Position numbers and translations under genes: made by a program. A stretch of 28,344 nucleotides of DNA. Source: a virus. Taxonomy: Duplodnaviria; Caudoviricetes. The notes under the pieces are model-generated. The model was not told where the DNA came from, ran no database searches, and was given only the letters and a program-made list of their open reading frames with translations. Below, in pieces: positions 1,502-25,940 of the stretch (the first letter of the stretch is position 1; each line of letters opens with the position of its first letter). Where the stretch lies: IMG/VR virus record IMGVR_UViG_3300030104_005449, positions 1 through 28,344 of that record; one strand, given 5' to 3'.

Positions 1502-3520
1502 TTAGTGTGTCCAATAAGGAGTTATACACGGTTCTGCTTTAAGAGGCACTGTTTTACAAAATATATCGCCTGCATCTTCCATACATTTTTTTAATATTAA
1601 GGACAACTCTTTTGCTTGGTCTTTCTTACATTCAAGATGTATCTCATCATGAACTACATTAGGCATTAAAACTTTAAACACAAGATTGTGTTTTTCTAAG
1701 TATCTAAACATATAAATGCCTGCAAGTTTTGTAATATCAGCAGATGTACCTTGAATAGGATAATTTAATGCATCCCGTTCAATACCACCTTTCTTTACAA
1801 AATACTCACGTACTTTAGGCTTTAATATATTATTAAAATAATTAGAATTTTTAGTTTTTTCTTGCTTATATGTAGTCCAGAAGTCTTTATCTTCATATAA
1901 TTCTTTATGCAATTTTTTAAAGTCTTCAAATCCATAAACAAAACATTTTCTTTTGCTTACGTCATTAAATTCTATATAACCATTTTTAAGAGCTTTAGCT
2001 TTCTGTTGTTTAAAATAACTATCAAGTCCAGGAAATGCTTCAAAGTATGCTTTATATACCATTTCACCTGTTTCTAAAGGTAAAGATAGATTTTTAGCAA
2101 TAGTCATTCCTACACCACCATAGTTAATAGCAAAACCAGCAGCTTTGGCCATTTGTCTTAAATCAGGTCTAGCTTTTTTTACATCGTTTAGTTTAACATC
2201 AGATAATTCTTCTGTAAATATTTTCTTAGCATTGAACGAATGCATATCGCCTAATCCTTTAGCATAAAATTCTAATAGGTTAGGTTCTAACGATTTATTA
2301 GCTAGCACTACTTGTTCTTGACCAGAATAATCTGCAACAATTAATGTATTTCCTTCTTCTGCAACAAAACAAGATCTTGTTCTATCATCAGCAGGTACAT
2401 TTTGCATATTAGGTTTTTGATGTAAACCACGTTTTTTATTAGCTTTTTGACCACTACTAAGTCTACCTGTATTCATTATTTGTGTATAATTAGTATGAAT
2501 ACGTTTAGTCCTAGAATTAATATAGTCAAACCAGTTATCTCCATAAGTAGAAACTAGTTTGTAAGCTTCACTATACTCTATATACAAAGGTATAATAGAA
2601 TGCTTCTTTTTCTGTGGTAACAATACTCCTTTATCAATAGAGTCTTTCATCAAACCAGATTGCTTGTCTTTTATCTTTGTATCTATACCTATTTTCTGCA
2701 TAAAAGGAATAACCTGTTTAGAGCTATTCCAATTTATACGTGTTTTCGGTTTGTTATCAAACAAATCCATTTGATTATCAATTAAATGCGGAAACAATTC
2801 AGGATTATCGAATATAAATTTATCTAGTTTATCTTCTTTTTGTTTAAGATGTTTTTTATCTTCTAAACATTTTTTATTCCATTTGTCTTTATCTAGTTTA
2901 ACACCACAGTGTTCTATATAAGCCAACACTCTAACATATTCATTGTCTAGGCTTATAGATTTTAATAAATCAAACTCTTGTGCTTTTTCTAGTTGTTTAC
3001 GTTTTATTTCAGACAAATATTTTACATCATCGCCTGCATATTTAATAACTCTAGTACTTAAACCTTCTCTATGGATACTGCCTCTAACAGATTTGTCCAT
3101 ATGTTGTTTACAATAATTCCAAACCAATGCATCTAGACCCTTTCTTGCAGTAGGAATACCAGTAGTTAGTATTCTTTCAGCTAAGAAAGTATCATATATT
3201 TTGCTAGGAACTATACCAAAGAAATATAAAAACTTTAGATCAAATTTAGCATTCTGAAATATTACTAACTTACGTTCCATAATATCTTTAAATAATTGAA
3301 TGCTTACTGTAGAACAATCTATAACAAATTGTTTTTTATCATCACCTAATTGTAAAGACAGTAAATCTGTGTCTACAGAAGGGTCAAACCGTTTAGTTTC
3401 TGTATCTACACCCACTTCATTTAAAGTTTCTAAGTATTCAAGACATTTTTCTACTGTAGAAAAACTATATCCTACAGGAGTAAATAAGCTTTGTTGATTA
3501 GTAATAAGATATGTGCTCAT
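1502..3520 (-). CDS. polA: DNA polymerase family A with N-terminal 3'-5' exonuclease
   Basis: Exonuclease motifs VDTET, QNAKFD and YAGDD. Polymerase motifs TGRLSS, PNMQN, A (ADYSGQE), B (RQMAKAAGFAINYG), NYPIQG and C (VHDE). No 5'-3' exonuclease domain, as in phage enzymes. Confidence 0.97.
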   Translation of the reverse strand: MSTYLITNQQSLFTPVGYSFSTVEKCLEYLETLNEVGVDTETKRFDPSVDTDLLSLQLGDDKKQFVIDCSTVSIQLFKDIMERKLVIFQNAKFDLKFLYFFGIVPSKIYDTFLAERILTTGIPTARKGLDALVWNYCKQHMDKSVRGSIHREGLSTRVIKYAGDDVKYLSEIKRKQLEKAQEFDLLKSISLDNEYVRVLAYIEHCGVKLDKDKWNKKCLEDKKHLKQKEDKLDKFIFDNPELFPHLIDNQMDLFDNKPKTRINWNSSKQVIPFMQKIGIDTKIKDKQSGLMKDSIDKGVLLPQKKKHSIIPLYIEYSEAYKLVSTYGDNWFDYINSRTKRIHTNYTQIMNTGRLSSGQKANKKRGLHQKPNMQNVPADDRTRSCFVAEEGNTLIVADYSGQEQVVLANKSLEPNLLEFYAKGLGDMHSFNAKKIFTEELSDVKLNDVKKARPDLRQMAKAAGFAINYGGVGMTIAKNLSLPLETGEMVYKAYFEAFPGLDSYFKQQKAKALKNGYIEFNDVSKRKCFVYGFEDFKKLHKELYEDKDFWTTYKQEKTKNSNYFNNILKPKVREYFVKKGGIERDALNYPIQGTSADITKLAGIYMFRYLEKHNLVFKVLMPNVVHDEIHLECKKDQAKELSLILKKCMEDAGDIFCKTVPLKAEPCITPYWTH

Positions 3521-3522
3521 AA

Positions 3523-3804
3523 TTAATATAATGTTAATTCTTGTAGATAAAAATCATATACAATAGGTTCTTTATCTTCTTTACACTTCATTTTAATATA
3601 TAATTCATAAAAAGAAGTGTGACCAAGATATTCTATAGTTGTTATTTCTGATTCTGTAGCATTAAACTCTCTAGCAAGTGCAGATTCTATGGCTGTGATA
3701 TTATCTTTGACATTTCCTTTGCCGCTTACTACCCCTTTTATGGTATTGTTATAATCTATAATAACAATAACTTTATCTTTATTTGTTGTTAAGTCTGCAA
3801 TCAT
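3523..3804 (-). CDS. hypothetical protein, 93 aa
   Basis: ORF track. Ends 2 nt before the polymerase start. Confidence 0.7.
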   Translation of the reverse strand: MIADLTTNKDKVIVIIDYNNTIKGVVSGKGNVKDNITAIESALAREFNATESEITTIEYLGHTSFYELYIKMKCKEDKEPIVYDFYLQELTLY

Positions 3805-3809
3805 AATAT

Positions 3810-4049
3810 TTATTCTTTTGGTAAAAAATCGTTTATATATAGTTGTTCTTTGTCTATAGCGTCTAGATATATTTGTTCGTATTTTTTAATATCTTCTACA
3901 CTACATTCTTTATTAAAGTGTTCAGTAATTAATGTTGCTAAATGTGAAGTAGACTCTACTTTATAATCTAAATGTATCAGTCTTATATACAATCCAATCT
4001 CATCGAACTGCACTTTTTTTCTCGTTTCTTTTCTCGTTATATCTGCCAT
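3810..4049 (-). CDS. hypothetical protein, 79 aa
   Basis: ORF track. First gene after the 4101-4129 terminator. Confidence 0.7.
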   Translation of the reverse strand: MADITRKETRKKVQFDEIGLYIRLIHLDYKVESTSHLATLITEHFNKECSVEDIKKYEQIYLDAIDKEQLYINDFLPKE

Positions 4050-4100
4050 TATAGTGTGCTTTAATATGTTACCTAAATTTCTTTTATAAATTATAAAACA

Positions 4101-4129
4101 ATAAAAAAGAGACTCATTATAAGTCTCTT
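4101..4129 (-). terminator. intrinsic terminator
   Basis: Stem aagagact (4107-4114) / agtctctt (4122-4129), followed by a T-run on the minus strand. Confidence 0.7.
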
Positions 4130-4156
4130 AATAATTATTAAACAATTATTTTAACA

Positions 4157-4423
4157 TTAACATTCAGCGTCAATGTTACAGTTTATCATCCAAGTTAAAT
4201 ACTTGGCATCCTGTCTACTATAAGCAATATATTCAGTATGTAATAAGTGTATAAAATCACATAAAGATTCTTCTGAACGATCATCTGTATTAGATACCCA
4301 TAATGAAATAGCTTGATCCATTTCATCATCAGTTAAATTAGTTTTTAATTCCAATTCAAGCGGTTCATTTTCATATGTTATTTTCATAGTAGCAGTTATA
4401 AACTTTCTTGTATTTTCTTTCAT
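4157..4423 (-). CDS. hypothetical protein, 88 aa
   Basis: ORF track. Preceded by TATCTTTAT, a -7-box-like element. Confidence 0.7.
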   Translation of the reverse strand: MKENTRKFITATMKITYENEPLELELKTNLTDDEMDQAISLWVSNTDDRSEESLCDFIHLLHTEYIAYSRQDAKYLTWMINCNIDAEC

Positions 4424-4434
4424 AATATAAAGAT

Positions 4435-4469
4435 AAAAAAAATGGGGAGCTTACAAAAACCCCCCATTT
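4435..4469 (-). terminator. intrinsic terminator
   Basis: Stem aaatgggg...ccccattt followed by a T-run on the minus strand. Confidence 0.75.
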
Positions 4470-4535
4470 CTACCTTTCAATTATGAACTAGAGTCAGTGA
4501 CACTCTCCACAGTTAAACTGACTCCGTCCATATCT
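4435..4535 (-). ncRNA. candidate 3'-UTR-derived antisense sRNA
   Basis: Hairpin gagtcagt/actgactc (4491-4524), then a single-stranded GUUCAUAAUUGAAAGG complementary to two phage start regions, then a terminator. Confidence 0.45.
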
Positions 4536-4943
4536 TTAATCTCCAAACAATTCGTCTAGAGTTCCTATATCATAAGCATAATTTGCATTTTTTGTATCAT
4601 AATATATAACACCAGCATTATTGCTATTAAAATTTACATTCATCATATAATTACCTGGTACAGGAGTTGTAACATATAATTGTTTTGTTTCATTTCCATT
4701 AATAAATTCTAATAAATAATAATTATTTTCAATAGGCAATGCCATAGCATATTCTGCATTATTTCTAACATGTATATCATTACCCATATAATATGACCAA
4801 GTGTCAGTATTTTCAGCAGGTATGTATATGTTGATAAAAGTAATTGGAGCTTCTCCATTTAATGATGCACCAGAAATATTAAATAACTGGCTATATACTG
4901 TTGAACTAACCGCTAACAGTACAATTAATAATAAATTTCTCAT
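4536..4943 (-). CDS. secreted hypothetical protein, 135 aa
   Basis: Signal peptide MRNLLLIVLLAVSSTVYS followed by Gln. The mature part looks beta-rich. Confidence 0.75.
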   Translation of the reverse strand: MRNLLLIVLLAVSSTVYSQLFNISGASLNGEAPITFINIYIPAENTDTWSYYMGNDIHVRNNAEYAMALPIENNYYLLEFINGNETKQLYVTTPVPGNYMMNVNFNSNNAGVIYYDTKNANYAYDIGTLDELFGD

Positions 4944-4967
4944 ATTTTTTTAAGTTTTTTAAGTGAA

Positions 4968-5159
4968 TTAATTTAAATAAACAGTACAATCCTCTACACT
5001 GATACCTGGCATAGAAAAATACTCTGACCTGTATGTCGTAACTAAAGGTAGTAAGATTAATCTCTGTACTACCTCTAGTTTAGACATGTTAGGATAGGCA
5101 TCCACACTATATACCATTTCAAGGTCACTGTTCATTTCTTTGAATGTTGCTTTTAACAT
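4968..5159 (-). CDS. hypothetical protein, 63 aa
   Basis: ORF track. Overlaps the stop of the upstream ORF. Confidence 0.6.
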   Translation of the reverse strand: MLKATFKEMNSDLEMVYSVDAYPNMSKLEVVQRLILLPLVTTYRSEYFSMPGISVEDCTVYLN

Positions 5160-5305
5160 CGCTCTAAAAGTAAAGAAAGTTTTTCTAGATAGACATCACT
5201 AGCTATCTTACGATAAACTTCTAAGACTTTATTCTTGCCCCACGTAGGGTTTGCCTCCAGAGCTTCGGCAAATTTCGAGTCAATCTCGTTCATTATCTCT
5301 TTCAT
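5153..5305 (-). CDS. 50-aa hypothetical protein (MKEIMNEIDSKFAEALEANPTWGKNKVLEVYRK...)
   Basis: Hand-translated. ATGA overlap with the upstream gene at 5302-5305. Confidence 0.6.
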   Translation of the reverse strand: MKEIMNEIDSKFAEALEANPTWGKNKVLEVYRKIASDVYLEKLSLLLERC

Positions 5306-5508
5306 ACTCGTACTCTTATTCTTTTAGTACAATTACTATTAGGAGAACCGTGTTTTCTTTTCCATCTTCTTCTTAATCTTTTACGTTTGTCATAAATAAT
5401 AGAAGATTCTACAGCAACAGAATTATCTGTTGTCTCATTTTTGACTTCAGTGTTAGCTGAAGAACTAAATGATAATAATAAGCTAAATAAAATGATAATT
5501 GATTTCAT
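5302..5508 (-). CDS. small protein with signal peptide and very basic C-terminus
   Basis: Start moved from 5565 to 5508 (MKSIIILFSLLLSFSSSA), which has an A-rich leader and gives a clean signal peptide. Confidence 0.65.
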   Translation of the reverse strand: MKSIIILFSLLLSFSSSANTEVKNETTDNSVAVESSIIYDKRKRLRRRWKRKHGSPNSNCTKRIRVRV

Positions 5509-5554
5509 AGTTTTAAATTTAAAAGGTAAATAAATAATTAATATAATGCTATAA

Positions 5555-5812
5555 TTACTCTGCAATTCTATAAGTACACTTGTTAAATACAGTAGGAACT
5601 TTCTTTATCTTAAGAGTAATTTCTAGTTGGTTAATGTGTCTAATAATATCTAGACCATTATGTAACGTATCTTTAGATACGTGTTCTATTATTTCTAATA
5701 GATCAGGTGATTTTTCTTGTTCTTCTTGTTCATACAAAAAGCTTGTTATACTATGTTGAATAATAAGACTATCTACATAGTTAATTAATTGAGAACTATT
5801 GTCTATGTCCAT
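5555..5812 (-). CDS. hypothetical protein, 85 aa
   Basis: ORF track. Start context CCTTTCAATTATG. Confidence 0.7.
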   Translation of the reverse strand: MDIDNSSQLINYVDSLIIQHSITSFLYEQEEQEKSPDLLEIIEHVSKDTLHNGLDIIRHINQLEITLKIKKVPTVFNKCTYRIAE

Positions 5813-5832
5813 AATTGAAAGGATTAAAAGGT

Positions 5833-6003
5833 TTATAAATCAATTGATTGTCTAGTTATTAACAATGTTAATCCAGCACTAATCAATCCAAATAATATGC
5901 CGTCACCAAATTGATCAGTATGCATACAAAATATCATTGATATAACACTAGTTAATAACAATATTAAGGTAATAAAAATTGGGTTAAAAATAAGTTTTTT
6001 CAT
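5833..6003 (-). CDS. 56-aa two-TM membrane protein (MKKLIFNPIFITLILLLTSVISMIF...GILFGLISAGLTLLI...)
   Basis: Hand-translated. Two hydrophobic segments and an A-rich leader. Confidence 0.65.
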   Translation of the reverse strand: MKKLIFNPIFITLILLLTSVISMIFCMHTDQFGDGILFGLISAGLTLLITRQSIDL

Positions 6004-6026
6004 ATTAAATAAATTAAAAGGTAAAT

Positions 6027-6062
6027 AAAAAATAAAAGGGACTCCTTGAATAAAGAGTCCCC
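6027..6062 (-). terminator. intrinsic terminator
   Basis: Stem gggactc (6038-6044) / gagtccc (6055-6061), followed by TTTTATTTTTT on the minus strand. Confidence 0.75.
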
Positions 6063-6088
6063 ATTATTATTAACTATTATGAAAGCAA

Positions 6089-6634
6089 TTATCCTCCAAT
6101 TGCTTGTGCTACTGCATCATCCGTAGATACTGTAGTAGTTTTTCTTACTGTGTTTTGTAAGAAAGTATGAGTAGGATTTCCTAATACTACATCTGACTTA
6201 ACAAAGATATAATCTCCATCATTACTAAGAATGAAATCACCATCTTTACCTGCACGTTTAGCACGAGTATCTAGATTAGCAAAATCATACTCAGTACCAT
6301 CAATTGTTTCAGTAATTTGGATATGTAATTCCTGTCCGTCAATAGTAGGATTCGATACATCTAAGTCCATTGTATCTCCTTCATTAGCTAAAGAAGAACA
6401 ATCAATTCCCAATGCAGTTTTAATATCAGAAACTTCACCTGAATGCCAAGCATAACGTGGTTTAGATTCTACAGTAAAACGTTCATCAGATTTATTTAAG
6501 ATACCTACAATAGATGAAGGTCTTAAATTAGGATTAGTTATCTTCTCAGCAAACATTAGTTGAACTTTGTTTCCTTTTACTTTCTTTGCACCGATCACAG
6601 CACATTGTCCTTGTTTTAAATTTTCTAAATTCAT
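6089..6634 (-). CDS. hypothetical protein, 181 aa (possibly nucleic-acid binding, function unassigned)
   Basis: ORF track. Has its own long leader and terminator. No diagnostic motif recognised. Confidence 0.8.
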   Translation of the reverse strand: MNLENLKQGQCAVIGAKKVKGNKVQLMFAEKITNPNLRPSSIVGILNKSDERFTVESKPRYAWHSGEVSDIKTALGIDCSSLANEGDTMDLDVSNPTIDGQELHIQITETIDGTEYDFANLDTRAKRAGKDGDFILSNDGDYIFVKSDVVLGNPTHTFLQNTVRKTTTVSTDDAVAQAIGG

Positions 6635-6894
6635 TTTAGATTATTTTATAGATTATAGTTTAGCTTTCAGAACAAACAGACTTTCGATTTAATACAATCT
6701 ATTCTTATATATCTGACTTGGAAGAATGATTGTGTTTATAGAAGTCTTTTACTTATTATGGAAAGCGATTCATAATAAGTAATTTATAATAATGCTATAA
6801 AGAATTAAATAATGTAGTTCTTTATGTTTATAGTTTGGGTAATAAATACCGTGATTTTACTTATCAACCGTAATTACTCTCAGTATTTAGAAAA

Positions 6895-6950
6895 GGTCGA
6901 TGACTTTGTTTCTTTTTTTTCGTTGACGTTGTTACAGTCGTTTGACTTTG
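6895..6950 (-). promoter_or_regulatory. cluster of TCG(W)TGACKTTG motif copies, candidate phage early promoter or operator
   Basis: ggtcgatgactttg 6895-6908, tcgttgacgttg 6920-6931 and gtcgtttgactttg 6937-6950. Another copy lies at 7318-7331. Confidence 0.45.
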
Positions 6951-6978
6951 TTATACTTTATTATACTTTATTACGTAA

Positions 6979-7012
6979 TAAAAGAAAAAAAGAAGAGGAG
7001 CCGAAGCTCCTC
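6979..7012 (-). terminator. intrinsic terminator with a UUCG tetraloop
   Basis: Minus strand reads GAGGAGC-TTCG-GCTCCTC then TTCTTTTTTTCTTTT, just after the 7018 stop. Confidence 0.85.
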
Positions 7013-7017
7013 GTCTG

Positions 7018-7260
7018 TTATGCGTAATGTAACATCTTCAGTGTGATGCCGTCCTCAGTAGTACGTGGAGTACCGTCTTCGTTAAGCATAGGAACTAAAG
7101 AGTAACCGTCAGGTATCTCGATAGTGTCTCCCTCTGATAGGTTAGCTACTGCTTCTCGTGGTACGTAGCAAGGTGTAGCTTGGAATACGAAAGCGTTAGC
7201 TTTGACTAATAATAGGGCACTCTTAGTGCCTCTGTTGGAGTGAAAAATAGCTTGTGCCAT
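7018..7260 (-). CDS. 80-aa hypothetical protein, likely early gene (MAQAIFHSNRGTKSALLLV...)
   Basis: Start moved from 7356 to 7260 (TTTCAATTATG context). Has its own upstream motif and terminator. Confidence 0.75.
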   Translation of the reverse strand: MAQAIFHSNRGTKSALLLVKANAFVFQATPCYVPREAVANLSEGDTIEIPDGYSLVPMLNEDGTPRTTEDGITLKMLHYA

Positions 7261-7317
7261 AATTGAAAAGTTTAAATTTTGGAGCGGGGTACTATTACCC
7301 ATCCAGATATTAGTTAG

Positions 7318-7331
7318 GGTCGTTGACTTTG
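7318..7331 (-). promoter_or_regulatory. motif copy GGTCGTTGACTTTG
   Basis: 13/14 identical to 6895-6908, about 60 nt upstream of the 7260 start. Confidence 0.45.
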
Positions 7332-7354
7332 CTGGTCTCCATTTAAACACGCAC

Positions 7355-7400
7355 AAAAAATTTTATAAAAAAAATTTCTAAAAAAAATTTTATAAAAATT
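7355..7400. repeat. tandem AnTn tracts with about 13-bp period
   Basis: aaaaaattttat-aaaaaaaatttct-aaaaaaaattttat-aaaaatt. Confidence 0.7.
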
Positions 7401-7536
7401 ATCTGCCTTGTCCTTTATAAGACTTTTTGTAATTACGAGAAGATTTTAGTTTACTAGATTTACTCTTGCTGTGAATTCCCTTTCTTTTTTTAGCAGGGGT
7501 AAATAGTTTAGAATCTGTTATTGTTCTTTTAGCCAT
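7399..7536 (-). CDS. 45-aa very basic protein ending YKGQGR
   Basis: Hand-translated as MAKRTITDSKLFTPAKKRKGIHSKSKSSKLKSSRNYKKSYKGQGR. Resembles small phage proteins ending YRGQGR. Confidence 0.75.
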   Translation of the reverse strand: MAKRTITDSKLFTPAKKRKGIHSKSKSSKLKSSRNYKKSYKGQGR

Positions 7537-7546
7537 GATTAAAATT

Positions 7547-7861
7547 TTATGCTATAGTCATAGAAGTAATTGTAGGATTATTTCCTGCCCCATCTGGTTT
7601 AGGTAAAGGAGTAGGAATATAAGTTATTGTACCTACATAAGACTCTTCTTGTGTTTTAGCTATTTCATTAAATAAAAAATTAGCAATACTATTATCATTA
7701 GCGGCCATTACAGCACTTAATGTTAATGTGATAGTTTTGCCTTCTTTATACCAGATCTTAACAGTTTGTGTAGTAGCCATATTTATACCTACTATACCGT
7801 TAGCACTGATTAAACTTCTAGAAGCTGGAGTTGTTAAATAGATACTTAAATACTTTTCCAT
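7547..7861 (-). CDS. hypothetical protein, 104 aa, possibly virion-associated
   Basis: Start moved from 7921 to 7861 (MEKYLSIYL), which has an A-rich leader and an upstream TATCTTTAT box. Thr/Ile/Ala-rich. Confidence 0.75.
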   Translation of the reverse strand: MEKYLSIYLTTPASRSLISANGIVGINMATTQTVKIWYKEGKTITLTLSAVMAANDNSIANFLFNEIAKTQEESYVGTITYIPTPLPKPDGAGNNPTITSMTIA

Positions 7862-8193
7862 AATAAGAGTTTGTTTGTTATTAAAGTATAAAGATAATGA
7901 TAATATAATTATATATGGCAAAACCTAAAGGTTTACCTTATATGTTAGTTGCTATTACGTATGTAACAGTAAAAAAAGTTAAGTGCCTCATAATAAAGAT
8001 ATTGTAAAAAAATAAGCTATCATATTTGGTTGGCCAGTACTATTACGTTTATGATAGTACTGACCTAATACCGTATAATAGTCAGACTGTTATATTTATG
8101 ATAGTAGACCTGTAATCCATTTTAAATATGCAAGAAAAACAACAATTTTTTTTATTTTTTAATTTTGTGATGTATTCCTAATGAATAATTGTA

Positions 8194-8201
8194 TATATTT
8201 G
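8194..8201 (+). promoter_or_regulatory. Bacteroidota-type -7 box (TAnnTTTG)
   Basis: TATATTTG. No TTTG at the canonical spacing upstream. Confidence 0.5.
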
Positions 8202-8206
8202 TTCTA

Positions 8207-8326
8207 TGTGATAATAGTAATCTACCAGTGCTTTTATTTTCTTGTTTGTGCGGTAGTAAAACTTATTCATAATGTTTTATAGTTTATAGTGGTTGAACCC
8301 TCCTATTAATTTAGGAGGGTTTTTTT
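8207..8326 (+). ncRNA. candidate standalone sRNA of about 120 nt
   Basis: Lies between a -7 box and a strong terminator. No ATG-initiated ORF longer than 5 codons. Has a 5' hairpin (ctacc...ggtag) and a UUCAUAAU segment. Confidence 0.55.
8296..8326 (+). terminator. intrinsic terminator
   Basis: aaccctccta-ttaatt-taggagggtt followed by a T-run. No protein gene upstream on this strand. Confidence 0.85.
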
Positions 8327-8375
8327 ATATGTAATGTAAGGCTTCCTATCATTTTTTGATATTATTACTATTATA

Positions 8376-8407
8376 TTTGTAACAGTAACTAAACTTTTTT
8401 ATATTTG
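8376..8407 (+). promoter_or_regulatory. Bacteroidota sigma70-type promoter for the structural block
   Basis: TTTG (8376-8379), 20 nt, then TATATTTG (8400-8407). Extra TATATTTG copies at 8372 and 8434. Confidence 0.6.
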
Positions 8408-8443
8408 TACTATCAATATTTGATATAAAATTATATATTTGTA

Positions 8444-8740
8444 ATGTTTAAACGAAGAAACAGAAAAGTGATAACGGTTTATTTAGATACTAGAGAAAGC
8501 ATTTTATTAAAGTCTAAAGACAGAACTTTCCACGTATTGTACTATATATTAAGACAGACTGATATGGAAAAACATATTTGGTATGCAGATAAAGTACATA
8601 AAGAAAGTATCATGCTTAACCTAGAAATATCACCAGTGACATTAGACAAGCATATTAGTTCTCTTAAACAACGTGATTTAATATTAACAACAACGGTGAG
8701 AGGGAGATATAGATTAAATATGCAAATTTTTTCAACCTAA
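8444..8740 (+). CDS. winged helix-turn-helix protein, RepL-like
   Basis: IMLNLEISPVTLDKHISSLKQRDLI helix-turn-helix followed by an RGRYRLN wing. Confidence 0.7.
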   Translation: MFKRRNRKVITVYLDTRESILLKSKDRTFHVLYYILRQTDMEKHIWYADKVHKESIMLNLEISPVTLDKHISSLKQRDLILTTTVRGRYRLNMQIFST

Positions 8741-8752
8741 AACTAAATTAAA

Positions 8753-9037
8753 ATGACAAAAGAAAAAACAATGGCTACTAAGGAAAAGGAGAAAGAAAAC
8801 TTAAAAGTAGTAGAAACAGTAGAAAAAGAAACTCAGACTGTTCAGGATTTAGCAGAGTTAACTCCGCAAGAGTATGCAGCTTATAGAAAACTACAACGAG
8901 ATGCTTGTGGTGCAGCAATTGATAAGTTATTACTTGAGTATGATACGGATTTAACTGCTAGAGTAATTGTAGGTGCTGATGCAATAATACCACAAGTATT
9001 TTTAGTAGATGCCAAACCTAAAGCACCAGTACAATAG
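8753..9037 (+). CDS. hypothetical protein, 94 aa
   Basis: ORF track. Operon position. Confidence 0.75.
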   Translation: MTKEKTMATKEKEKENLKVVETVEKETQTVQDLAELTPQEYAAYRKLQRDACGAAIDKLLLEYDTDLTARVIVGADAIIPQVFLVDAKPKAPVQ

Positions 9038-9209
9038 TAAAGATCTTTTGTACTTATTTGACAAAGAAAAGAATTTGTTAAAAACTATTGAGTCGTATTG
9101 TGCTAGAATTAATCTAACTATTACAACAAAATATTTTTTAACAGATTCTAATCTTTTTATTTTAGAAATATTAATAAACTATGGAGACGAAGACAAGACA
9201 GCAAGCTGA
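9009..9209 (+). CDS. hypothetical protein, 66 aa
   Basis: Fills the gap between two genes and overlaps each by 29 nt. Confidence 0.55.
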   Translation: MPNLKHQYNSKDLLYLFDKEKNLLKTIESYCARINLTITTKYFLTDSNLFILEILINYGDEDKTAS

Positions 9210-9573
9210 TCAATTATTTAGTATTATAGATGCTATATTTAATGGAGTAAATGATGCTCAACATAGAGCAGGAACAGGTAAATCTTTTAGTTATGATTTA
9301 ATGGCAATACCTCCGTCTAAAAAAGACAAAGAAAAAGACGCTCTTACACAATATAATTTTACAGTTAAAATACATGAAGCAGGTTATAAAGAAATTGAAT
9401 TACAAACTATTCCTTTTACAAAACCTAAAAATTATGACAAGTATAAAATGGAAGTACAAGTATTGTTAGCAGTATTAACTATTATTGCTGAAACTACTTT
9501 TACTCATTGGGTTGAGCTAGGAAAATTATTAAATGTAGATACTGAACTACAAGAAGCCGCTAAGAAAGCTTAA
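9181..9573 (+). CDS. hypothetical protein, 130 aa
   Basis: ORF track. A-rich leader. Confidence 0.8.
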   Translation: METKTRQQADQLFSIIDAIFNGVNDAQHRAGTGKSFSYDLMAIPPSKKDKEKDALTQYNFTVKIHEAGYKEIELQTIPFTKPKNYDKYKMEVQVLLAVLTIIAETTFTHWVELGKLLNVDTELQEAAKKA

Positions 9574-10936: not shown

Positions 10937-13129
10937 ATGATAAATAACTCTAATTTTCTTATAGGTAAAATTCCTGATTTACATCCTGAGTTAGAGTATT
11001 ACGAAAGGTTATCTTATTGGCAAACACAAAAACGTAGATGTATTGAAGGATACTGGGTCTCTGGTAAGTGGATGCCTGGGCCGTTATATTACTACGTAAA
11101 TTTTCATAACATATTATTTGAAGATGATAGTTCTGTTGCACAAGCTTCAGGACTTCCTTGGTTAAGAGATCTAGATTGGGAAATGTTTTATATTTATGAA
11201 GAATGTAGAGGATTCTCAGGATTTTCAGAAGATACAAAATATACATGTGATAGAAGATACGGGCCTGAAAAAGATTTAGCTATTTTATTAGGACGTATAA
11301 CTAAAGAAGAAATTAAGAAAAAAGTATATGTTTCTGCTAGAGAATATTTAAGAAAAACTCATAACAAAAGTTTAGGAAAACCGTTATATAAAAACGAAGC
11401 TAGACATTTAATAAGTATACAGTCTCGTGGAGGCGGTAAATCTTATGGTACATCAGGATTAATTAATCATAATTATTTATTTGATGGAGCTACAGATTAT
11501 GATATATATTTAGAACGTAAAAAAGAAAAGAAATATATTGCTTCTGATACAATAGTAGGAGCTATTGATACTAAATATACAGGGCCATTAATTAAAAAAA
11601 TATTACATGCTTTAGAAATGCTACCTGGAGAATATAAATTAGCTTCTGATAAAATACATCCTTCTCCTTTACTAGTATCTCATACAGGATCACTTGCTCC
11701 TAATAAAGAATATCAATCAAAAACAGGATCTTTGCTTAGACATAGAACTTTTAAAGATAATCCTCTTGCTGCCAATGGTACTAGACCTAACTTAGTAGCT
11801 ATGGATGAAATAGGGTTTATGTATAATATTAAAGAATCTTGGGCAGCTATAGAAGCAACACAGCAATCTAAACAAAAAAAGAATCTAGTTATTTGGGCTT
11901 TAGGTACTGGCGGTTTGGTAGCAGGTAAAGCGGCTTTGTATGCTGAATCTATATTTCGTAATCCTCAAGATTATAATTGTTTAGTATTTGAAGATATATT
12001 TGAAAATAGAGGACAAATAGGATATTTTGTTCCTTATACAAAAACTTTAAATGAGTTTAAGGATAAACCTAACTACATTACTGATGAAAAAAGAGCTGAC
12101 CTTTATATAAAACATAGAAGAGAAGAAGCTAAAAAATCAGATGATCCTTCTGTTTATCAAGGAGAAATTATTAATGGGCCTATAGTTCCGTCTGAAGCAT
12201 TTTTAGTTGTAGAAGGATCTTATTTTCCTACATTATATTTAAAAAATCATTTAGCAGAAGTAGAAGGAGGAGAGTGTCAAAAATATGTAGACAGTTCTTT
12301 TAAAGGAGAATTAATATTTAATGATAACGGAGAAATAGAATTTTCTACAATACAAGATGCTAGACCTATAAGAAATTTTCCTTTAAAGAAAAATGATCCT
12401 AAAGAAGGGTGTATAGAAGTATGGGTAAAACCTCAAAAAAATGAAGACGGGGTAGTTCCTAGAGGAACTTATATAGCAGGGATGGACGTTGTAGATAAAG
12501 CCAGGGCTACTACAAGTTCATTACCTTCTATAGTAATAATGAATAGATTTACTCGTCAAATTGTAGCAGAATATACAGGACGTACAGATGATCCTAACGA
12601 TTTTTATGAAATATGTAGAAAATTATTATTATATTATAACGCTACTGGAATGTATGAACAAAACTTACCAGGATTGTTTACATACTTTGAACGTAAAAAA
12701 TGTTTGTATTTGCTAGCAGATACTCCTTATCAGTTACGTAATTCAGATACATTCAGACAAGGTACTAATACTTCTAAAGGAATTAATGCCTCAGAAAAAG
12801 TTAACCAAACAGCTAGAGATTTTATTAAATCATGGTTGTTAGAAAAAACATCTAGTAATTCTGATCAAAGAGTACTAGAATTAATTTATTCTCCTGCAAT
12901 GTTATTAGAACTTATTATGTGGAATAAAAGAGGTAACTTTGACCGTGTATCTTCTTTAGGTATGGTAATGTGGCACGATGCTACAACACAAAGAAATATA
13001 GAAAAAGAAACAGTAGCTGTTAAAACATTTTTAGACGATGAATATTGGGAAGATATGGGAGTATTAAAATTTTCAAAATCTAAATCCGTTTTTAACGACT
13101 TTGAAGATCCTTTCAATTTAAGAAAGTAA
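10937..13129 (+). CDS. terL: terminase large subunit
   Basis: Walker A SRGGGKS, Walker B VAMDEIG, nuclease motifs IAGMDVVD, YEQN and GNFDRVS. Followed by the portal gene. Confidence 0.93.
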   Translation: MINNSNFLIGKIPDLHPELEYYERLSYWQTQKRRCIEGYWVSGKWMPGPLYYYVNFHNILFEDDSSVAQASGLPWLRDLDWEMFYIYEECRGFSGFSEDTKYTCDRRYGPEKDLAILLGRITKEEIKKKVYVSAREYLRKTHNKSLGKPLYKNEARHLISIQSRGGGKSYGTSGLINHNYLFDGATDYDIYLERKKEKKYIASDTIVGAIDTKYTGPLIKKILHALEMLPGEYKLASDKIHPSPLLVSHTGSLAPNKEYQSKTGSLLRHRTFKDNPLAANGTRPNLVAMDEIGFMYNIKESWAAIEATQQSKQKKNLVIWALGTGGLVAGKAALYAESIFRNPQDYNCLVFEDIFENRGQIGYFVPYTKTLNEFKDKPNYITDEKRADLYIKHRREEAKKSDDPSVYQGEIINGPIVPSEAFLVVEGSYFPTLYLKNHLAEVEGGECQKYVDSSFKGELIFNDNGEIEFSTIQDARPIRNFPLKKNDPKEGCIEVWVKPQKNEDGVVPRGTYIAGMDVVDKARATTSSLPSIVIMNRFTRQIVAEYTGRTDDPNDFYEICRKLLLYYNATGMYEQNLPGLFTYFERKKCLYLLADTPYQLRNSDTFRQGTNTSKGINASEKVNQTARDFIKSWLLEKTSSNSDQRVLELIYSPAMLLELIMWNKRGNFDRVSSLGMVMWHDATTQRNIEKETVAVKTFLDDEYWEDMGVLKFSKSKSVFNDFEDPFNLRK

Positions 13130-13175: not shown

Positions 13176-15614
13176 ATGGCATACGAATCAAGTATAAAAC
13201 TAAATAATTTAACTAGTTTTCCTAGACAAAAATTATCAGAAAAAAGTAAAACAAAAAAATGGTTTAAAAAATGTGTAGACTACGCAGAAAATCTTTTAAC
13301 TTCTGATTTTGAATTAAGAGCAAATTTTAAAAACAAACAGACTAACTATAGGTTACGTTCTAATGTAATAAATCCAAAAGATTTTCAAAGATATATTAAT
13401 CCTGATAATTTAGATTTACAAAAACTTCCTGCACAATTTCAACATGTTGGAATAGAAAACTCTAAAATTAATCTTTTACTAGGAGAATACTCTAAAAGAA
13501 GAAAAGAATATCGTGCCTATCTTTCTTCTAATGATGTAGAAGGAATTTCTAGAAAAGAAAGAGAATTAAGATCTCAAATGGATAAGCTTTTTATGGAAAT
13601 TGTAACAGGAGAAGCTAAATCAGAAAAAGAAATACAAGAAGCATTAAAAGCTCAAATGGATTATGCTACTTATGATTTTCAAGATATTGCAGAAATTACT
13701 GCTAATAGAATTCTTAAAAGAGAATACAAAGAACAAAATTTAGATTTTTTATTCTTACGTACATTTGAAGATCTTTTAGTAGCAGGAGAAGAAATAGTAT
13801 ACTGTGGAGTACTAGGAGGAGAACCTGTAATGAGAAGGGTAAACCCTATGAACTTATATACATTAGGAGGTAGTTCTATGTATGTAGAAGATTCTGATGT
13901 TATTATATGGTATGACTACATGTCTACTGGACAAGTTATAGATGATTACTGGGATGAGTTAACTCCTAAAGATGTAGAATTTTTAGAAACAGGAACAAGT
14001 ACTACTACAGCAGCTACTACTGCTATAGGTCTTAATAAAGATTATTCTATAGATGAAATTTATGGTGATTTAGATGCATTACAAATTTTTCATCCTAGTG
14101 AAGTAGGAAGTAGAACTTTTGCAGGATCTTTTGATTCGTCAGGAAACGTAAGAGTTGTTAGAGCATGTTGGAGATCTAGACGTAAATTATATAAACGTAA
14201 ATATTACGATCAAGATGGAGAAACTCAATATGATTTTGTAGATGAATTTTATAAAGCTAAAAAAGATTTAGGAGAAGAACTTGAAGAAGTATGGGTTAAT
14301 GAATGGTTAGAAACTACAAAAATTGCTGATGATATTTATGTAGGTATGAAACCAGTGCCTTATTCTGGAAAATCTTTAGTAAATAAATCTAAAGGAACTC
14401 CTCCATTTGTAGGATCAGTATATAGTACTAATGATACTCGTGTACAATCTTTGTCAGATGTAATGAAACCATTAGCTTATTCTTATGATATTGCTTATTA
14501 TAAACGTGAATTAGAAATAGCAACATACAAAGGTAACTTTGCTGCTATTAATGCATCTATGATTCCTGCAGGTTGGAAACCAGCAGAATGGATTAGATAT
14601 ATTACTATAAATAAATTTGGATTTTTAGATCCTACAAATGAAATATTAAAAGGCCCTTCACAAGGAAAATCTGCAGGAGCATTTAATCAATTAACTGCTA
14701 CTAATGTACAGATGGGGGATCCTAATGCTATACAAATGTATACTAATATATTATTAGATATAGAAAATACATTAGGTAAATTAGCAGGTGTATCTGGAGC
14801 CAGAGAAGGACAAATACAAAATCGTGAAGCAGTAGGTAATGTAGAACGTGAAGTTGCACAAACTTCTCATATTACTGAAAAGTGGTTTTCAGTAGATGCT
14901 AATTTTCGTAAACGTGCAGTAACTAAATTTTTAGAATGTTGTAAATATGCTTATAAAAAGAATCCTAAACGAGGTCAATTTTTAATGGACGATATGGGAT
15001 CAGTTATGATTAAAAACTTTGATGAATTTGTTTCTTCAGAAATGGATATTCATATTGGAGATTCTACAGCAGATACTCAATTATATTCAGAAATTAAATC
15101 TTTATCACAAGCAGCTATACAAAATGGTCAAGCTAAAATAGAAGATTTAATTGCTATTTCTACTTCTGAATCTGTACAAGAAACTTCTCGTAAATTAAAA
15201 GCTTCAGCAGAACGTATTAGAAAAGAGCAACAAGAAATGGCTGCACAAGATAGAGAAGCTAATATGCAAATGCAACAAATGAAAAACGAGCTTCAAGAAA
15301 AAATGTGGGAAAGAGATGATTTCCATAAAGCAGAAGATCGTAAAATTGAGTATGCTAAAATTAATGCAAAACTTGAAGAGGTTACTTTAAAAGAAGAAGT
15401 AAATCTTATGCGTGATAATATGCGTATAGATAGTGACGGAAATGGTATAGCAGATGAAATAGACTTAAGACGTACAGAAGTAGACGAAAACTTTAAAGAA
15501 AATAGTATTAGAGTACAAGAAGAAAAACTTAATGAAACTATTAGAAATAATAAAGCTAATGAAGAAATAAAAAGAGAAAAAATAGCAAAAACAACAAAAC
15601 AAGAAAAAAAATAA
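13176..15614 (+). CDS. portal protein (crAss-like)
   Basis: 812 aa. Motifs FPRQKL, KINLLLGE and GVSGAREGQI...EAVGNVER, plus a C-terminal coiled coil. Follows the terminase. Confidence 0.88.
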   Translation: MAYESSIKLNNLTSFPRQKLSEKSKTKKWFKKCVDYAENLLTSDFELRANFKNKQTNYRLRSNVINPKDFQRYINPDNLDLQKLPAQFQHVGIENSKINLLLGEYSKRRKEYRAYLSSNDVEGISRKERELRSQMDKLFMEIVTGEAKSEKEIQEALKAQMDYATYDFQDIAEITANRILKREYKEQNLDFLFLRTFEDLLVAGEEIVYCGVLGGEPVMRRVNPMNLYTLGGSSMYVEDSDVIIWYDYMSTGQVIDDYWDELTPKDVEFLETGTSTTTAATTAIGLNKDYSIDEIYGDLDALQIFHPSEVGSRTFAGSFDSSGNVRVVRACWRSRRKLYKRKYYDQDGETQYDFVDEFYKAKKDLGEELEEVWVNEWLETTKIADDIYVGMKPVPYSGKSLVNKSKGTPPFVGSVYSTNDTRVQSLSDVMKPLAYSYDIAYYKRELEIATYKGNFAAINASMIPAGWKPAEWIRYITINKFGFLDPTNEILKGPSQGKSAGAFNQLTATNVQMGDPNAIQMYTNILLDIENTLGKLAGVSGAREGQIQNREAVGNVEREVAQTSHITEKWFSVDANFRKRAVTKFLECCKYAYKKNPKRGQFLMDDMGSVMIKNFDEFVSSEMDIHIGDSTADTQLYSEIKSLSQAAIQNGQAKIEDLIAISTSESVQETSRKLKASAERIRKEQQEMAAQDREANMQMQQMKNELQEKMWERDDFHKAEDRKIEYAKINAKLEEVTLKEEVNLMRDNMRIDSDGNGIADEIDLRRTEVDENFKENSIRVQEEKLNETIRNNKANEEIKREKIAKTTKQEKK

Positions 15615-16956: not shown

Positions 16957-18465
16957 ATGTCACAATTACTTCCGTTACAAAAGTATGCTGCGGTTGATTA
17001 TAATGGTTTAGTTACCGATAATCACTTTCATGCTTTGTATCAACAAAAACCAGAGTTGATCTCTAACGTGATCAAGTCTATTTACAAAACTAACTTACAA
17101 GGAAAACTACGTGAATTCGTAGATCGTTTCCCTGTAAAAGAAGTTGAGCAAGAAAATGGTTTCTATAACTGGATGTTACAAGGTCAACATGACAAGAATT
17201 TAGCTCTTGTTGACGCTGAAACAATTGGTGGTTCTTCTATTTCTGCAGGAACTTTCCCTGCAAATGTAGGAGCAAATGGAGAGCGTTTTTACCTTTTATT
17301 TGATGAGCCTTTATTTGAAGAAACAAACGTTTTACGTGGTGAATCAGATGCTTATCACTATTTAGTAAAAAAAGTAACTGACGCAGGTTCACGTTACAAA
17401 GTAGAGGTAGAATTACTTACAGATGATACAGATATGACTGTACCTTCTGATGAGTTAGCAGTTAGCACTCGTTTCTCTAAATTTTATGGAGCAGCTCCTT
17501 CTACGTTATCTTACAGAGGTTCTGAGCCTTATTTTACTTCTCCTTGGAGAATGGAAAACCGTCCTTCTACATTGCGTATGCAATATGAAGTTGCTGGTAA
17601 CACAATTAACAAAGGAAAAAATGAACCACTAGAGTTTGGATTTAACTACAAAGGTCAACAAGAATCTATGTGGATTAATTACCAAGATTTAGTTGCTCAT
17701 CACCAATGTGAAGAAATGTTTGCAAGAATGTGTCTTTACGGTAAGAAAAACTGGGGATCAGATCATAAATATTTAAACAAAGACGATAAGACTAAATATG
17801 CTATCGAGTCTGGTGCTGGTTTCTTTGAGCAAATAGCTCCTTCAAACGTACACTATTACAATACTTACGACCTTGATTGGCACTTAGAAATGTTATTAGA
17901 CATGGGTGTTGGTAAATTGGAAAGAGGTAAACGTGTAGTTCACATCTTAACTGGTGAGTTTGGTGCAATTGAAATTTCTAAACAAATTTCTGCTAAAACT
18001 GACGCTAAAGTACAGATTGTTTCTGATAAATGGATAACAGGTAAAACTGCTCCAGGAACTATCGGAGGCAGTAATACTTACTCTTCTTTAGAGCCACAAT
18101 ATAATATTTATCAATATTACAATGGTGTTGAGCTTAGAGTTGAGATTTTAGATTTCTTCGATGATGATGTATACTTCCCACAACGTCACCCAGACGGATT
18201 AGGAATTGTAGAATCTCATAGAATGTTAGCTCTTGACTATGGTGAAGATGCAGGAATCTATAGAGTTAAGCCAAAAGGTGTTCCAGATTATAACTGGGCA
18301 TACATCGCAGGTATGCGTGATCCGTTTACTGCAGGTGGTAAAGGTTCTCCTAAATCAGTATCATCATCTATTGATGGTTACGAAGTACACTTCCAAAAAT
18401 GGGGTGGAATGATGATTGAAGATCCTACTAAAGTTGTAGATTTACGTTTAAACGTAACTAAATAA
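16957..18465 (+). CDS. major capsid protein (crAss-like)
   Basis: 502 aa with high-expression codon choice (cgt, ggt, ttc, tac). Motifs SGAGFFEQI, TGEFG and C-terminal DGYEVH...GMMIEDPT. Gene order fits. Confidence 0.88.
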   Translation: MSQLLPLQKYAAVDYNGLVTDNHFHALYQQKPELISNVIKSIYKTNLQGKLREFVDRFPVKEVEQENGFYNWMLQGQHDKNLALVDAETIGGSSISAGTFPANVGANGERFYLLFDEPLFEETNVLRGESDAYHYLVKKVTDAGSRYKVEVELLTDDTDMTVPSDELAVSTRFSKFYGAAPSTLSYRGSEPYFTSPWRMENRPSTLRMQYEVAGNTINKGKNEPLEFGFNYKGQQESMWINYQDLVAHHQCEEMFARMCLYGKKNWGSDHKYLNKDDKTKYAIESGAGFFEQIAPSNVHYYNTYDLDWHLEMLLDMGVGKLERGKRVVHILTGEFGAIEISKQISAKTDAKVQIVSDKWITGKTAPGTIGGSNTYSSLEPQYNIYQYYNGVELRVEILDFFDDDVYFPQRHPDGLGIVESHRMLALDYGEDAGIYRVKPKGVPDYNWAYIAGMRDPFTAGGKGSPKSVSSSIDGYEVHFQKWGGMMIEDPTKVVDLRLNVTK

Positions 18466-18472
18466 CATAATA

Positions 18473-20351: not shown

Positions 20352-21683
20352 ATGTTAAGAAAATCAAAAAACGTATTCGCTGCTTTATTAAGTGACGGTA
20401 CATTAAATTCAGCTAACTTACCTGCCGATGGTACAGTAGTAACAAACGACAACCTTCCTATAGGAATGGTGTGTTTAGTAGATGCGGGAGGAAGAAGAGA
20501 AAATGATCTTGATGATATAGCTACAGGTGATCAGTATGCTATTGTTCAAAGTTTAGGGCCAAATAAGCCTTTAATGAGATCTCCTATGATTACTAAAGGA
20601 AAAGAGACTATTACTTCTCAAAAATTTGTACCTTCTGCACAACAAGTTACTGCAATTGGTTTTAATGGAACTACAGGTTCTTTACCAGCAGCTAATTCTA
20701 CAGAGTATTACATTAGAATTAAAAGAAATGATAATAATGGAAGAGACAACTCTCAAGGAACTAGTATGTTTGCAGGCCCTATTAAAAGTAGTGCTGCTGC
20801 AACACAAGTAGGTATAGCAGATGCTCTTGTAATAAACGGAATTAAACAAAATGATCTTGAAGCAGATCCTTATGTAATATTTGAAGGTCTTAGTTCTAAT
20901 GCTGGAACTGCTGTAACTTCTGCTGGAGGTGGAGCTTTTGCTAGTCTTAAGTTTACTAAAGGAAGCAAAGAAGTATCTAGTGTAAGCAATGGAGTAACAA
21001 CTAGTTCAAATCTTGAAGTAGGAACATATGTTAAAATAGCAGCAGCTACTACTTCTCCGATTTATAAAATTACTGCAGTGTCTCTTGGAACAGCAGGTAC
21101 ACCTACTAAATTTACTCTTGATAGACCTTATCAAGGAGAAACTACAGCATTAATTGCAAAAGGAACTTTAAGAATGATTACTGCAGCTTTAGCTCAAGCA
21201 GGATCAGCAGGTGTTAGAATAACAGGTGTTGAAAATGCTTTTGATGTAAGTAAATGGAGAAATTACTATGTAAATCGTTTTACAGCTAATTTCTTTGGCG
21301 GTACTGCTACACTTACTTCTTTAACGGGAGCTAATACAGGTACAGGTGTATGGCAACAAGTTGCTATGGACGAGTATATGAATTATGGATTTGAAGGACA
21401 AGGTACTATTGGTACACCTCCAACAATTCGTGAATCTGTTGTTAAAATTCCTGGAGTAGGTTCTGAAACAGCTTTAACTTCTAAATATTCAATTATTAAT
21501 ATTGCTTGGACAGAAGATATTGATGGTTTAGTATCTACTGGAAAAGGTAAAGGTAATGTATTACTTTATTTAAATCTTCAAGATGATAGTGGTGTTGGTA
21601 AATTAGATACTTCTACTGCTAATCCTGGGGAAACACTTGCAGTAGCATTAAAACTTACTGCCGCTACATTAAATGAAGCATAA
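20352..21683 (+). CDS. putative auxiliary capsid/structural protein
   Basis: 443 aa, G/A/T/S-rich. Sits at the end of the capsid block before a terminator. Confidence 0.6.
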   Translation: MLRKSKNVFAALLSDGTLNSANLPADGTVVTNDNLPIGMVCLVDAGGRRENDLDDIATGDQYAIVQSLGPNKPLMRSPMITKGKETITSQKFVPSAQQVTAIGFNGTTGSLPAANSTEYYIRIKRNDNNGRDNSQGTSMFAGPIKSSAAATQVGIADALVINGIKQNDLEADPYVIFEGLSSNAGTAVTSAGGGAFASLKFTKGSKEVSSVSNGVTTSSNLEVGTYVKIAAATTSPIYKITAVSLGTAGTPTKFTLDRPYQGETTALIAKGTLRMITAALAQAGSAGVRITGVENAFDVSKWRNYYVNRFTANFFGGTATLTSLTGANTGTGVWQQVAMDEYMNYGFEGQGTIGTPPTIRESVVKIPGVGSETALTSKYSIINIAWTEDIDGLVSTGKGKGNVLLYLNLQDDSGVGKLDTSTANPGETLAVALKLTAATLNEA

Positions 21684-21706
21684 TTAGGATTTTTCTCCTC
21701 AACCTT

Positions 21707-21751
21707 AGTAGCCTGCCGAAATATTGCTGTCTAGGCAGGCTACTTTTTTTT
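21707..21751 (+). terminator. intrinsic terminator with a 16-nt loop
   Basis: agtagcctgcc / ggcaggctact followed by a T-run. Confidence 0.9.
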
Positions 21752-25781: not shown

Positions 25782-25940
25782 ATGAAAAAAATAAATTGGA
25801 TAAATAGTTGGAAAAAAGGTAATAAAAAAAATAAAATACAAATTATTGCCAGAATTGGACTTATAACAGTATTTGAATTTTATTGGAATCCAGGTACACA
25901 ATTTAGATTATTAATACTTAATTGCGGTATACAATCATGA
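25782..25940 (+). CDS. 52-aa hypothetical protein (MKKINWINSWKKGNKKNKIQIIARIGLITVFE...)
   Basis: Hand-translated. ATGA overlap with the next gene. Confidence 0.65.
   Translation: MKKINWINSWKKGNKKNKIQIIARIGLITVFEFYWNPGTQFRLLILNCGIQS

Follow-up and report, generated by a model that had tools for sequence, protein, structure and literature searches.

Closest described systems and how the locus compares

According to the available portions of the sources, FopS is a family of paralogous small RNAs (sRNAs) in Bacteroides (Rfam RF04319; PMC11697453), whose members consist of a single-stranded seed plus a terminator and repress translation at start codons (PMC11697453, PMC7366714). GibS and FopS-10 begin with GTGTTTTTCATAGTATTAG, as does the FopS consensus, and a FopS sequence in a Caudovirales phage is mentioned (PMC11697453). 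Here we describe three candidate regulatory RNAs, elements A, B and C, in a 28,344-nucleotide (nt) stretch of phage DNA (IMG/VR record IMGVR_UViG_3300030104_005449; hereafter the window), a linear fragment that is about 23% complete. The feature is real and conserved, a putative phage variant of the FopS/GibS kind with one specific predicted RNA-target pair.

In the fold-back inhibition of hok mRNA, a 3′-end sequence pairs back on the translation start of the same transcript. The name fbi occurs in the available part of PMC3562002. For phage phi14:2 (Crassvirales), the accessible text of 10.1101/2020.03.07.982082 describes a virion polymerase that transcribes the early genes and a host polymerase that transcribes the middle and late genes, together with abundant non-coding intergenic RNAs of function not known and early transcripts without common promoter motifs. 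Among the 22 terminator-like sites called in phi14:2, we observed no clear copy of the element and one weak candidate.

As in FopS, the phage elements carry a TTCATA(A/G)T anti-AUG core (seed TTTTTCATAGT) 5′ of an intrinsic terminator, a Rho-independent hairpin lying 3′ of the seed, and are predicted to pair across start codons. Both promoter-driven members and members derived from 3′ untranslated regions (UTRs) occur by sequence, as they do in FopS: C has a TATATTTG box at 8194 (sigma-ABfr type TAnnTTTG), and A and B lie in 3′ UTRs. The FopS seed sits in a single-stranded 5′ end, whereas the core of A and C is predicted to lie behind and partly within a 5′ hairpin; the phage flank is variable and tracks a phage gene, and the elements are found in a phage instead of a host chromosome. 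The RF04319 covariance model gave no match on the strands of A, B and C, the best window scores (8–21 bits against a cut-off of 56) being antisense of starts, and the elements of some relatives reach 29–34 bits against the same cut-off. The FopS R1′ seed consensus GTGTTTTTCATAGTATTAGATTTAAGG is not found in the phage elements, of which the flanks differ and only the TTCATA(A/G)T core is common. Separately, the most FopS-like element lies in a relative (G003:C1:33192-33266; L012/L013), scoring 34.2 bits and having an own-genome partner at P = 0.001.

Like GibS (RF04182; accessible part of PMC7366714), whose phylum does not use Shine-Dalgarno pairing, the phage elements have an R1-type core and an extended AT-rich duplex that would cover start codons. 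The phage elements differ in having no R2 or body similarity; the GibS R1 and R2 seeds were not found together in them, and the only match to the GibS model scored 27.6 bits against 115 and falls on the antisense of the 4423 gene start instead of on an element. By prediction, the phage elements act like FopS and GibS but are not members of RF04319. Among themselves, likeness beyond the 8-nt core and terminator is at P = 0.027 for A-B, 0.54 for A-C and 0.20 for B-C, and "family" is therefore used for a shared build, not for shown paralogy, because the three share little else.

The core is placed ahead of terminators

The three copies of the core TTCATAAT listed in Table 1 lie 8, 13 and 21 nt 5′ of terminator stems beginning at 4471, 6062 and 8295, respectively, which bears out the observation of the first-pass annotation that three such cores precede terminators. 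The annotation had also proposed a test for enrichment, and its outcome is divided between word count and position. The 8-mer itself is not enriched: the window contains 8 copies against 4.5 ± 2.1 expected, and 10 of 100 shuffles reach at least 8. As for position, the core is present at 3 of the 4 strong intergenic terminators of the window, with a maximum of 1 in 5000 shuffles (a post hoc test); a looser scan of the window returns 24 terminator-like sites. Relatives and window together provide 79 loci with 174 non-redundant intergenic terminators; TCAT[AG][AG]T lies ahead of 20 of these (shuffle mean 2.65, maximum 9) and occurs at 0 of the 174 in a control zone 53–95 nt upstream. Of the 20 sites, 11 are clean, three are starts of long open reading frames (ORFs) on the opposite strand, and six run into a called ORF or a stop; the 20 are not independent, because 9 of them are homologues of A, B or C. 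Starting from the motif instead, a terminator follows 14 of 197 core sites, compared with 5/359, 2/229 and 1/207 for three control words (Fisher p about 0.001).

Two further CATAAT copies, which had been listed before hairpins at 18466 and 21679, did not hold up. None of 3 close relatives has the copy after the capsid-gene stop (18466). The copy at 21679 arises from overlap with a stop codon (GCA-TAA), and one of three relatives has GAATAA there instead. Close to the latter, at 21684–21750, an anti-Shine-Dalgarno-like pyrimidine tract TTTTTCTCCTCAACC stands ahead of a conserved terminator, in 3 of 3 relatives. An intergenic hairpin at 6748–6783, with arms made of a start-like ATTATG and its complement CATAAT and with a 5-codon frame inside, shows the same start/anti-start motif without a terminator.

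Element A and its predicted targets

Element A lies in the 3′ UTR of a small gene of the leftward arm and keeps this position in relatives even where the downstream gene differs. TCATA.TT is invariant in 10 of 10 aligned homologues, which have a mean column identity of 45% and diverged terminator stems. An ATG at 4529–4531, in the 5′ arm of the A hairpin, is predicted to pair with the core CAT; the same pairing is predicted for 7 of 9 homologues, the 3′ flank being more open. A 16-codon mini-ORF from this ATG was rejected as the conserved function, as it has 2–3 codons in L021, L011, L017 and L018. The read-through RNA 4405–4535 folds at −48 kcal/mol. Two contig-only runs of one sample contain diverged relatives over 3500–9500, which says nothing on expression.

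Pairing was assessed against 40 curated starts of the window, and the null was the best match in each of 3000 draws of 40 starts from a pool of 1378 foreign phage starts. The complementarity between A and the start of gene 5555–5812 (gene 5812) is 15.5/16, and 0 of 3000 draws were as good; with opening costs included, this pair is still the best (−9.6 kcal/mol). The best anchored partner of B is the start of gene 5508, not beyond chance (P = 0.23), and C pairs 13.5/16 with the start of gene 7861 (P = 0.75). The first-pass annotation had ascribed to each segment 15–16 nt of complementarity with the start of a different phage gene; this length is found for A and B and is weaker for C, while an own phage target is supported for A and not for B or C. 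The product of gene 5812 belongs to no Pfam or PHROG family and has 11 close and 3 distant homologues; an Atlas search gives an unconfirmed lead to small DsrD/Mnd1-like helix-turn-helix (HTH) clusters (0.88–0.91).

Six phages have both A and a 5812 orthologue; among the own-genome partners of A, this orthologue ranks first in four of them and third in the other two. The four first-rank cases have P values of 0.001, 0.001, 0.013 and 0.35 against the best of N foreign starts. More broadly, 5 of 17 elements from 11 genomes or loci have an own-genome partner at P ≤ 0.013, and the other 12 have none. Specifically, the flank of A is matched to the leader of gene 5812 or its orthologue as AATTGAAAGG to CCTTTCAATT in the window, AATTAAAAGGGG to CCCCTTTCAATT in L018, and AATTAAAGTTAAG to CTTAACTTTACATT in L020. 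A search for compensatory change between seed and target had been proposed as a check, and for A and gene 5812 the two co-vary: the own seed pairs with the own orthologue start at a mean of −17.2 kcal/mol, compared with −13.0 kcal/mol when swapped (p = 0.008, 720 permutations, six phages, uncorrected). The permutation p ranges from 0.008 to 0.042 across six seed windows and from 0.017 to 0.05 when any one phage is dropped, and is 0.042 in 11 of 12 tests when near-identical seeds are collapsed. Co-variation was also observed for the orthologues of gene 7260 (p = 0.042) and of gene 5508 (p = 0.017, driven by L017 and L019), and nine other gene families gave p = 0.17–1.0. Pseudo-seeds taken from other gene starts reached p ≤ 0.017 in 0 of 42 cases. 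Upstream of gene 7260, a conserved leader at 7285–7345, also present in L007, L009 and L010, is a possible phage-polymerase promoter or genome-end signal.

Elements B and C

Besides the window, only L014, L015 and L021 were found to carry element B, the core of which is largely free of pairing in the predicted fold. In the family of gene 6089–6634, any TCAT[AG] occurs in 10 of 73 distinct 3′ UTRs, B itself in few. We propose that the build was copied recently, within one clade, to give B, for which no target is supported.

Element C is predicted to be a separate RNA made by the host polymerase, with the same core and possibly a host target. Its promoter box follows the TAnnTTTG consensus of Bacteroidota promoters (available parts of PMC7366714 and PMC9723704), which in flavobacteria lies at −12 to −5 (PMC9723704); this spacing puts the start of C near 8206 and its length at about 125 nt. 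The fold of C beats 200 of 200 shuffles (z −3.8), and two-sided changes occur in 3 of 36 predicted pairs of its hairpin. L005, L006, L008, L011 and L018 have C complete with promoter and terminator; it is missing in 5 of 9 loci of the initial set, and its seed was found in only four contigs of a viral scan, all already among the relatives. The region 8150–8360 has nothing in the two contig-only runs of one sample, which again says nothing on expression. Pairing with the gene 6634 leader, the top one for C in the window, was rejected as not beyond chance (P = 0.62); of the six phages that have the C seed, the window among them, only L098 has a phage start with which it pairs strongly (P = 0.001–0.013).

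The relatives that keep C with promoter and terminator have a 13-codon frame from its 5′ arm, with a synonymous change, a stop switch and the ATG paired to the core; as the conserved function of C this frame was rejected, since it is missing in the window. Around C, between the arms (7930–8440), lie several TACTATCAYGTTTRTRACAGTA-like, partly palindromic repeats conserved in L005–L011, which adjoin stacked TATATTTG boxes (8372, 8400 and 8434) and form a candidate operator or origin array. Beside it, 8444–8740 is a possible HTH gene (weak Rrf2 match, E 0.043).

Competing explanations

The explanation that we put forward, and hold to be about evenly poised between right and wrong, is that A masks the start of gene 5812, perhaps also that of gene 7260, making first contact through its free flank and then opening its own hairpin. 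The gene block of the putative early arm ends in A, a conserved hairpin–anti-AUG–terminator segment, which may accumulate as a stable 3′ fragment. Its core CAT is predicted to be folded on the ATG of its own 5′ arm, leaving the 3′ flank as a toehold that would open the hairpin only on a well-matched leader. A would then pair over the start codon of gene 5812, and probably of gene 7260 too, so that translation would be blocked in the manner of FopS and GibS. Such an element may exert delayed negative feedback on the early genes that precede it, and the position of all three co-varying families, upstream of A, fits this. Fold-back within one mRNA, as in hok, would explain gene 5812 equally well as action in trans, since A and gene 5812 lie in one block between terminators. 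Unlike hok, no toxin-antitoxin pair is shown here, the fold would span about 1.3 kb and several genes, and gene 7260 is in another block; trans action is weakly favoured because gene 7260 lies two terminators upstream of A. The first-pass proposal of sRNAs that mask early phage gene starts thus survives for A, by conservation and co-variation, and the "family" does not extend beyond the shared build; the three-target network is only partly supported.

Several observations weigh against masking by A. The co-variation comes from six phages, three with near-identical seeds, and the statistic ignores kinship; because twelve families were tested, p = 0.008 becomes about 0.1 after Bonferroni correction. 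The own-orthologue duplex is weak in L017, L019 and L098 (−11.0, −13.5 and −11.9 kcal/mol), and three different seeds all reach −24.1 kcal/mol on the L018 start. In G001 and L097, where no 5812 orthologue was shown, no pairing of A exceeds chance (P 0.62 and 0.17), and in the window neither B nor C has a significant target. AT-rich start regions mimic the FopS and GibS models, as the low-scoring window hits are antisense of gene starts, and the predicted pairing of CAT in cis could by itself account for the conservation of the core.

This last point leads to a purely local role in cis, which we regard as unlikely: the CAT would close the 5′ hairpin over the upstream ATG, or pair with the AUG of the next gene in read-through RNA and silence that gene. 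It agrees with the upstream pairing predicted for A homologues and in the C consensus, with read-through folds of A onto the 4423 start and of B onto the 6003 start, and with the 7 of 12 elements in a broader TCAT[AG] list that have a downstream start within 100 nt and fold onto it. Yet the A seeds show no co-variation with the starts of downstream orthologues (p = 0.67 for the 4157 family and 0.54 for the 3810 family), the core stays when the neighbouring gene changes, C has no matching downstream start, and the match of the free 3′ flank of A to the 5812 leader is left unexplained. The elements might instead be FopS-like mimics aimed at the host, masking many starts of the ATGAAA type, such as those of outer-membrane transporters and possibly of the phage receptor, or soaking up an RNA-binding protein similar to RbpB, which FopS RNAs bind. 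We consider this rather unlikely, although the core is shared with FopS R1′, mRNAs of outer-membrane proteins are over-represented among the predicted targets of FopS (available part of PMC11697453), and each seed pairs at ≤ −12 kcal/mol with 2–17% of foreign starts. The C seed is nearly fixed while phage starts vary, with strong phage-start pairing in 1 of 6 phages that have that seed type, and the promoter of C is host-type; the flank of A, on the other hand, follows a phage leader. Host mimicry is compatible with masking by A and is more plausible for C than for A. It appears decidedly improbable that the elements are by-products without RNA function, derived from "terminator + gene start" modules that were copied in inverted orientation or left as remnants when the AT-rich early region was shuffled. 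The antisense of true gene starts beside hairpins does score on the FopS and GibS models, 3 of the 20 enriched sites are real opposite-strand starts, and B and C are both patchy (B in few of the 73 distinct 3′ UTRs, C absent from 5 of 9 initial loci). Against this, the core is invariant despite diverging flanks and stems, opposite-strand frames from the cores are short (A 2, B 15 codons) and lack conservation, the hairpin of C shows compensatory changes (3/36 pairs), as by eye do those of A and B, and generic within-genome likeness of starts yields no such signal (0/42 pseudo-seeds).

Beyond masking by A, we offer tentatively, and with some doubt, a wider scheme of an RNA timer built from FopS-type parts. 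Toehold-gated A would co-evolve with and shut off the phage's own upstream early genes, C made by the host polymerase would appear with late transcription and mask host or early starts, and phage elements would serve as a reservoir for anti-start sRNAs of Bacteroidota.

Genome context

Table 1 Features of the window discussed in the text.
Feature	Position	Strand	Description
Element A, candidate regulatory RNA	4433–4535	−	3′ UTR of gene 4536–4943; 5′ hairpin, anti-AUG core, short free stretch, terminator
A 5′ hairpin	4482–4532	−	Predicted fold
A core TTCATAAT	4480–4487	−	Sequence and homologue alignment
A intrinsic-terminator-like hairpin	4438–4471	−	
Gene carrying A in its 3′ UTR	4536–4943	−	135 amino acids (aa), hydrophobic N-terminus; relatives carry A likewise
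Alternative cis fold of A	4405–4487	−	Core would pair across the terminator with the AUG of gene 4157–4423 in read-through RNA
Predicted main target site of A	5807–5822	−	Start region of gene 5555–5812 (gene 5812), 85 aa
Predicted second target site of A	7254–7271	−	Start region of gene 7018–7260 (gene 7260), 80 aa, near head of leftward arm
Element B	6027–6104	−	Hairpin 6082–6104 over stop of gene 6089–6634, core 6076–6083, terminator 6037–6062
Best anchored partner of B	5494–5509	−	Start of gene 5302–5508 (gene 5508), 15/16
Element C, predicted stand-alone RNA of ~125 nt	8206–8330	+	5′ hairpin, core 8266–8273, terminator 8295–8322; between the arms
TATATTTG, Bacteroidota TAnnTTTG promoter box ahead of C	8194–8201	+	Kept in 4/4 aligned relatives
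DNA polymerase	1502–3520		Leftward arm
Terminase	10937–13129	+	PHROG 6681
Portal	13176–15614	+	PHROG 6547
Major capsid protein	16957–18465	+	PHROG 11589

By its terminase, portal and major capsid genes, the contig is placed with the crAss-like phages. The capsid protein is ~29% identical to those of crAss phages, and the best cultured match of the terminase is that of Cellulophaga phage phi14:2 (35%; both by tblastn). Small genes and the polymerase make up a leftward arm, which points away from a rightward morphogenesis arm, and by analogy with phi14:2 the former would be early and the latter late. The host phylum is probably Bacteroidota, given the crAss-like lineage and the TAnnTTTG boxes. 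Bacterial genome scans confirmed no relative of gene 6089–6634 and gave 0 matches to the exact complement of the C seed, and therefore provide no pointer to the host. Giant virion RNA polymerase genes are not in this 28-kb fragment (~23% of the genome), no tRNA was found in the window, and Rfam returned over the whole window a single L20 leader match, at chance level.

Elsewhere, the early arm carries a radical SAM gene at 300–1133 that is spore-photoproduct-lyase-like (PF20903, E 5e-18), and a long repeat protein rich in cysteine and aspartate (25937–28344) runs off the contig end. A distant relative has a RAGATH-1 hammerhead ribozyme match below threshold (L054:2261-2324; 43.5 bits, E 0.00055).

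Significance

The seed type and layout are already known from FopS and GibS. In the literature searched, whose coverage leaves most subscription journals outside, we found no description of such RNAs in crAss-like phages. For the way in which crAss-like phages switch off their early genes, the predicted pair of A and gene 5812 offers a testable translational shut-off. If true, start-codon masking of the FopS type would extend from the metabolism of gut Bacteroides to the self-regulation of a phage.

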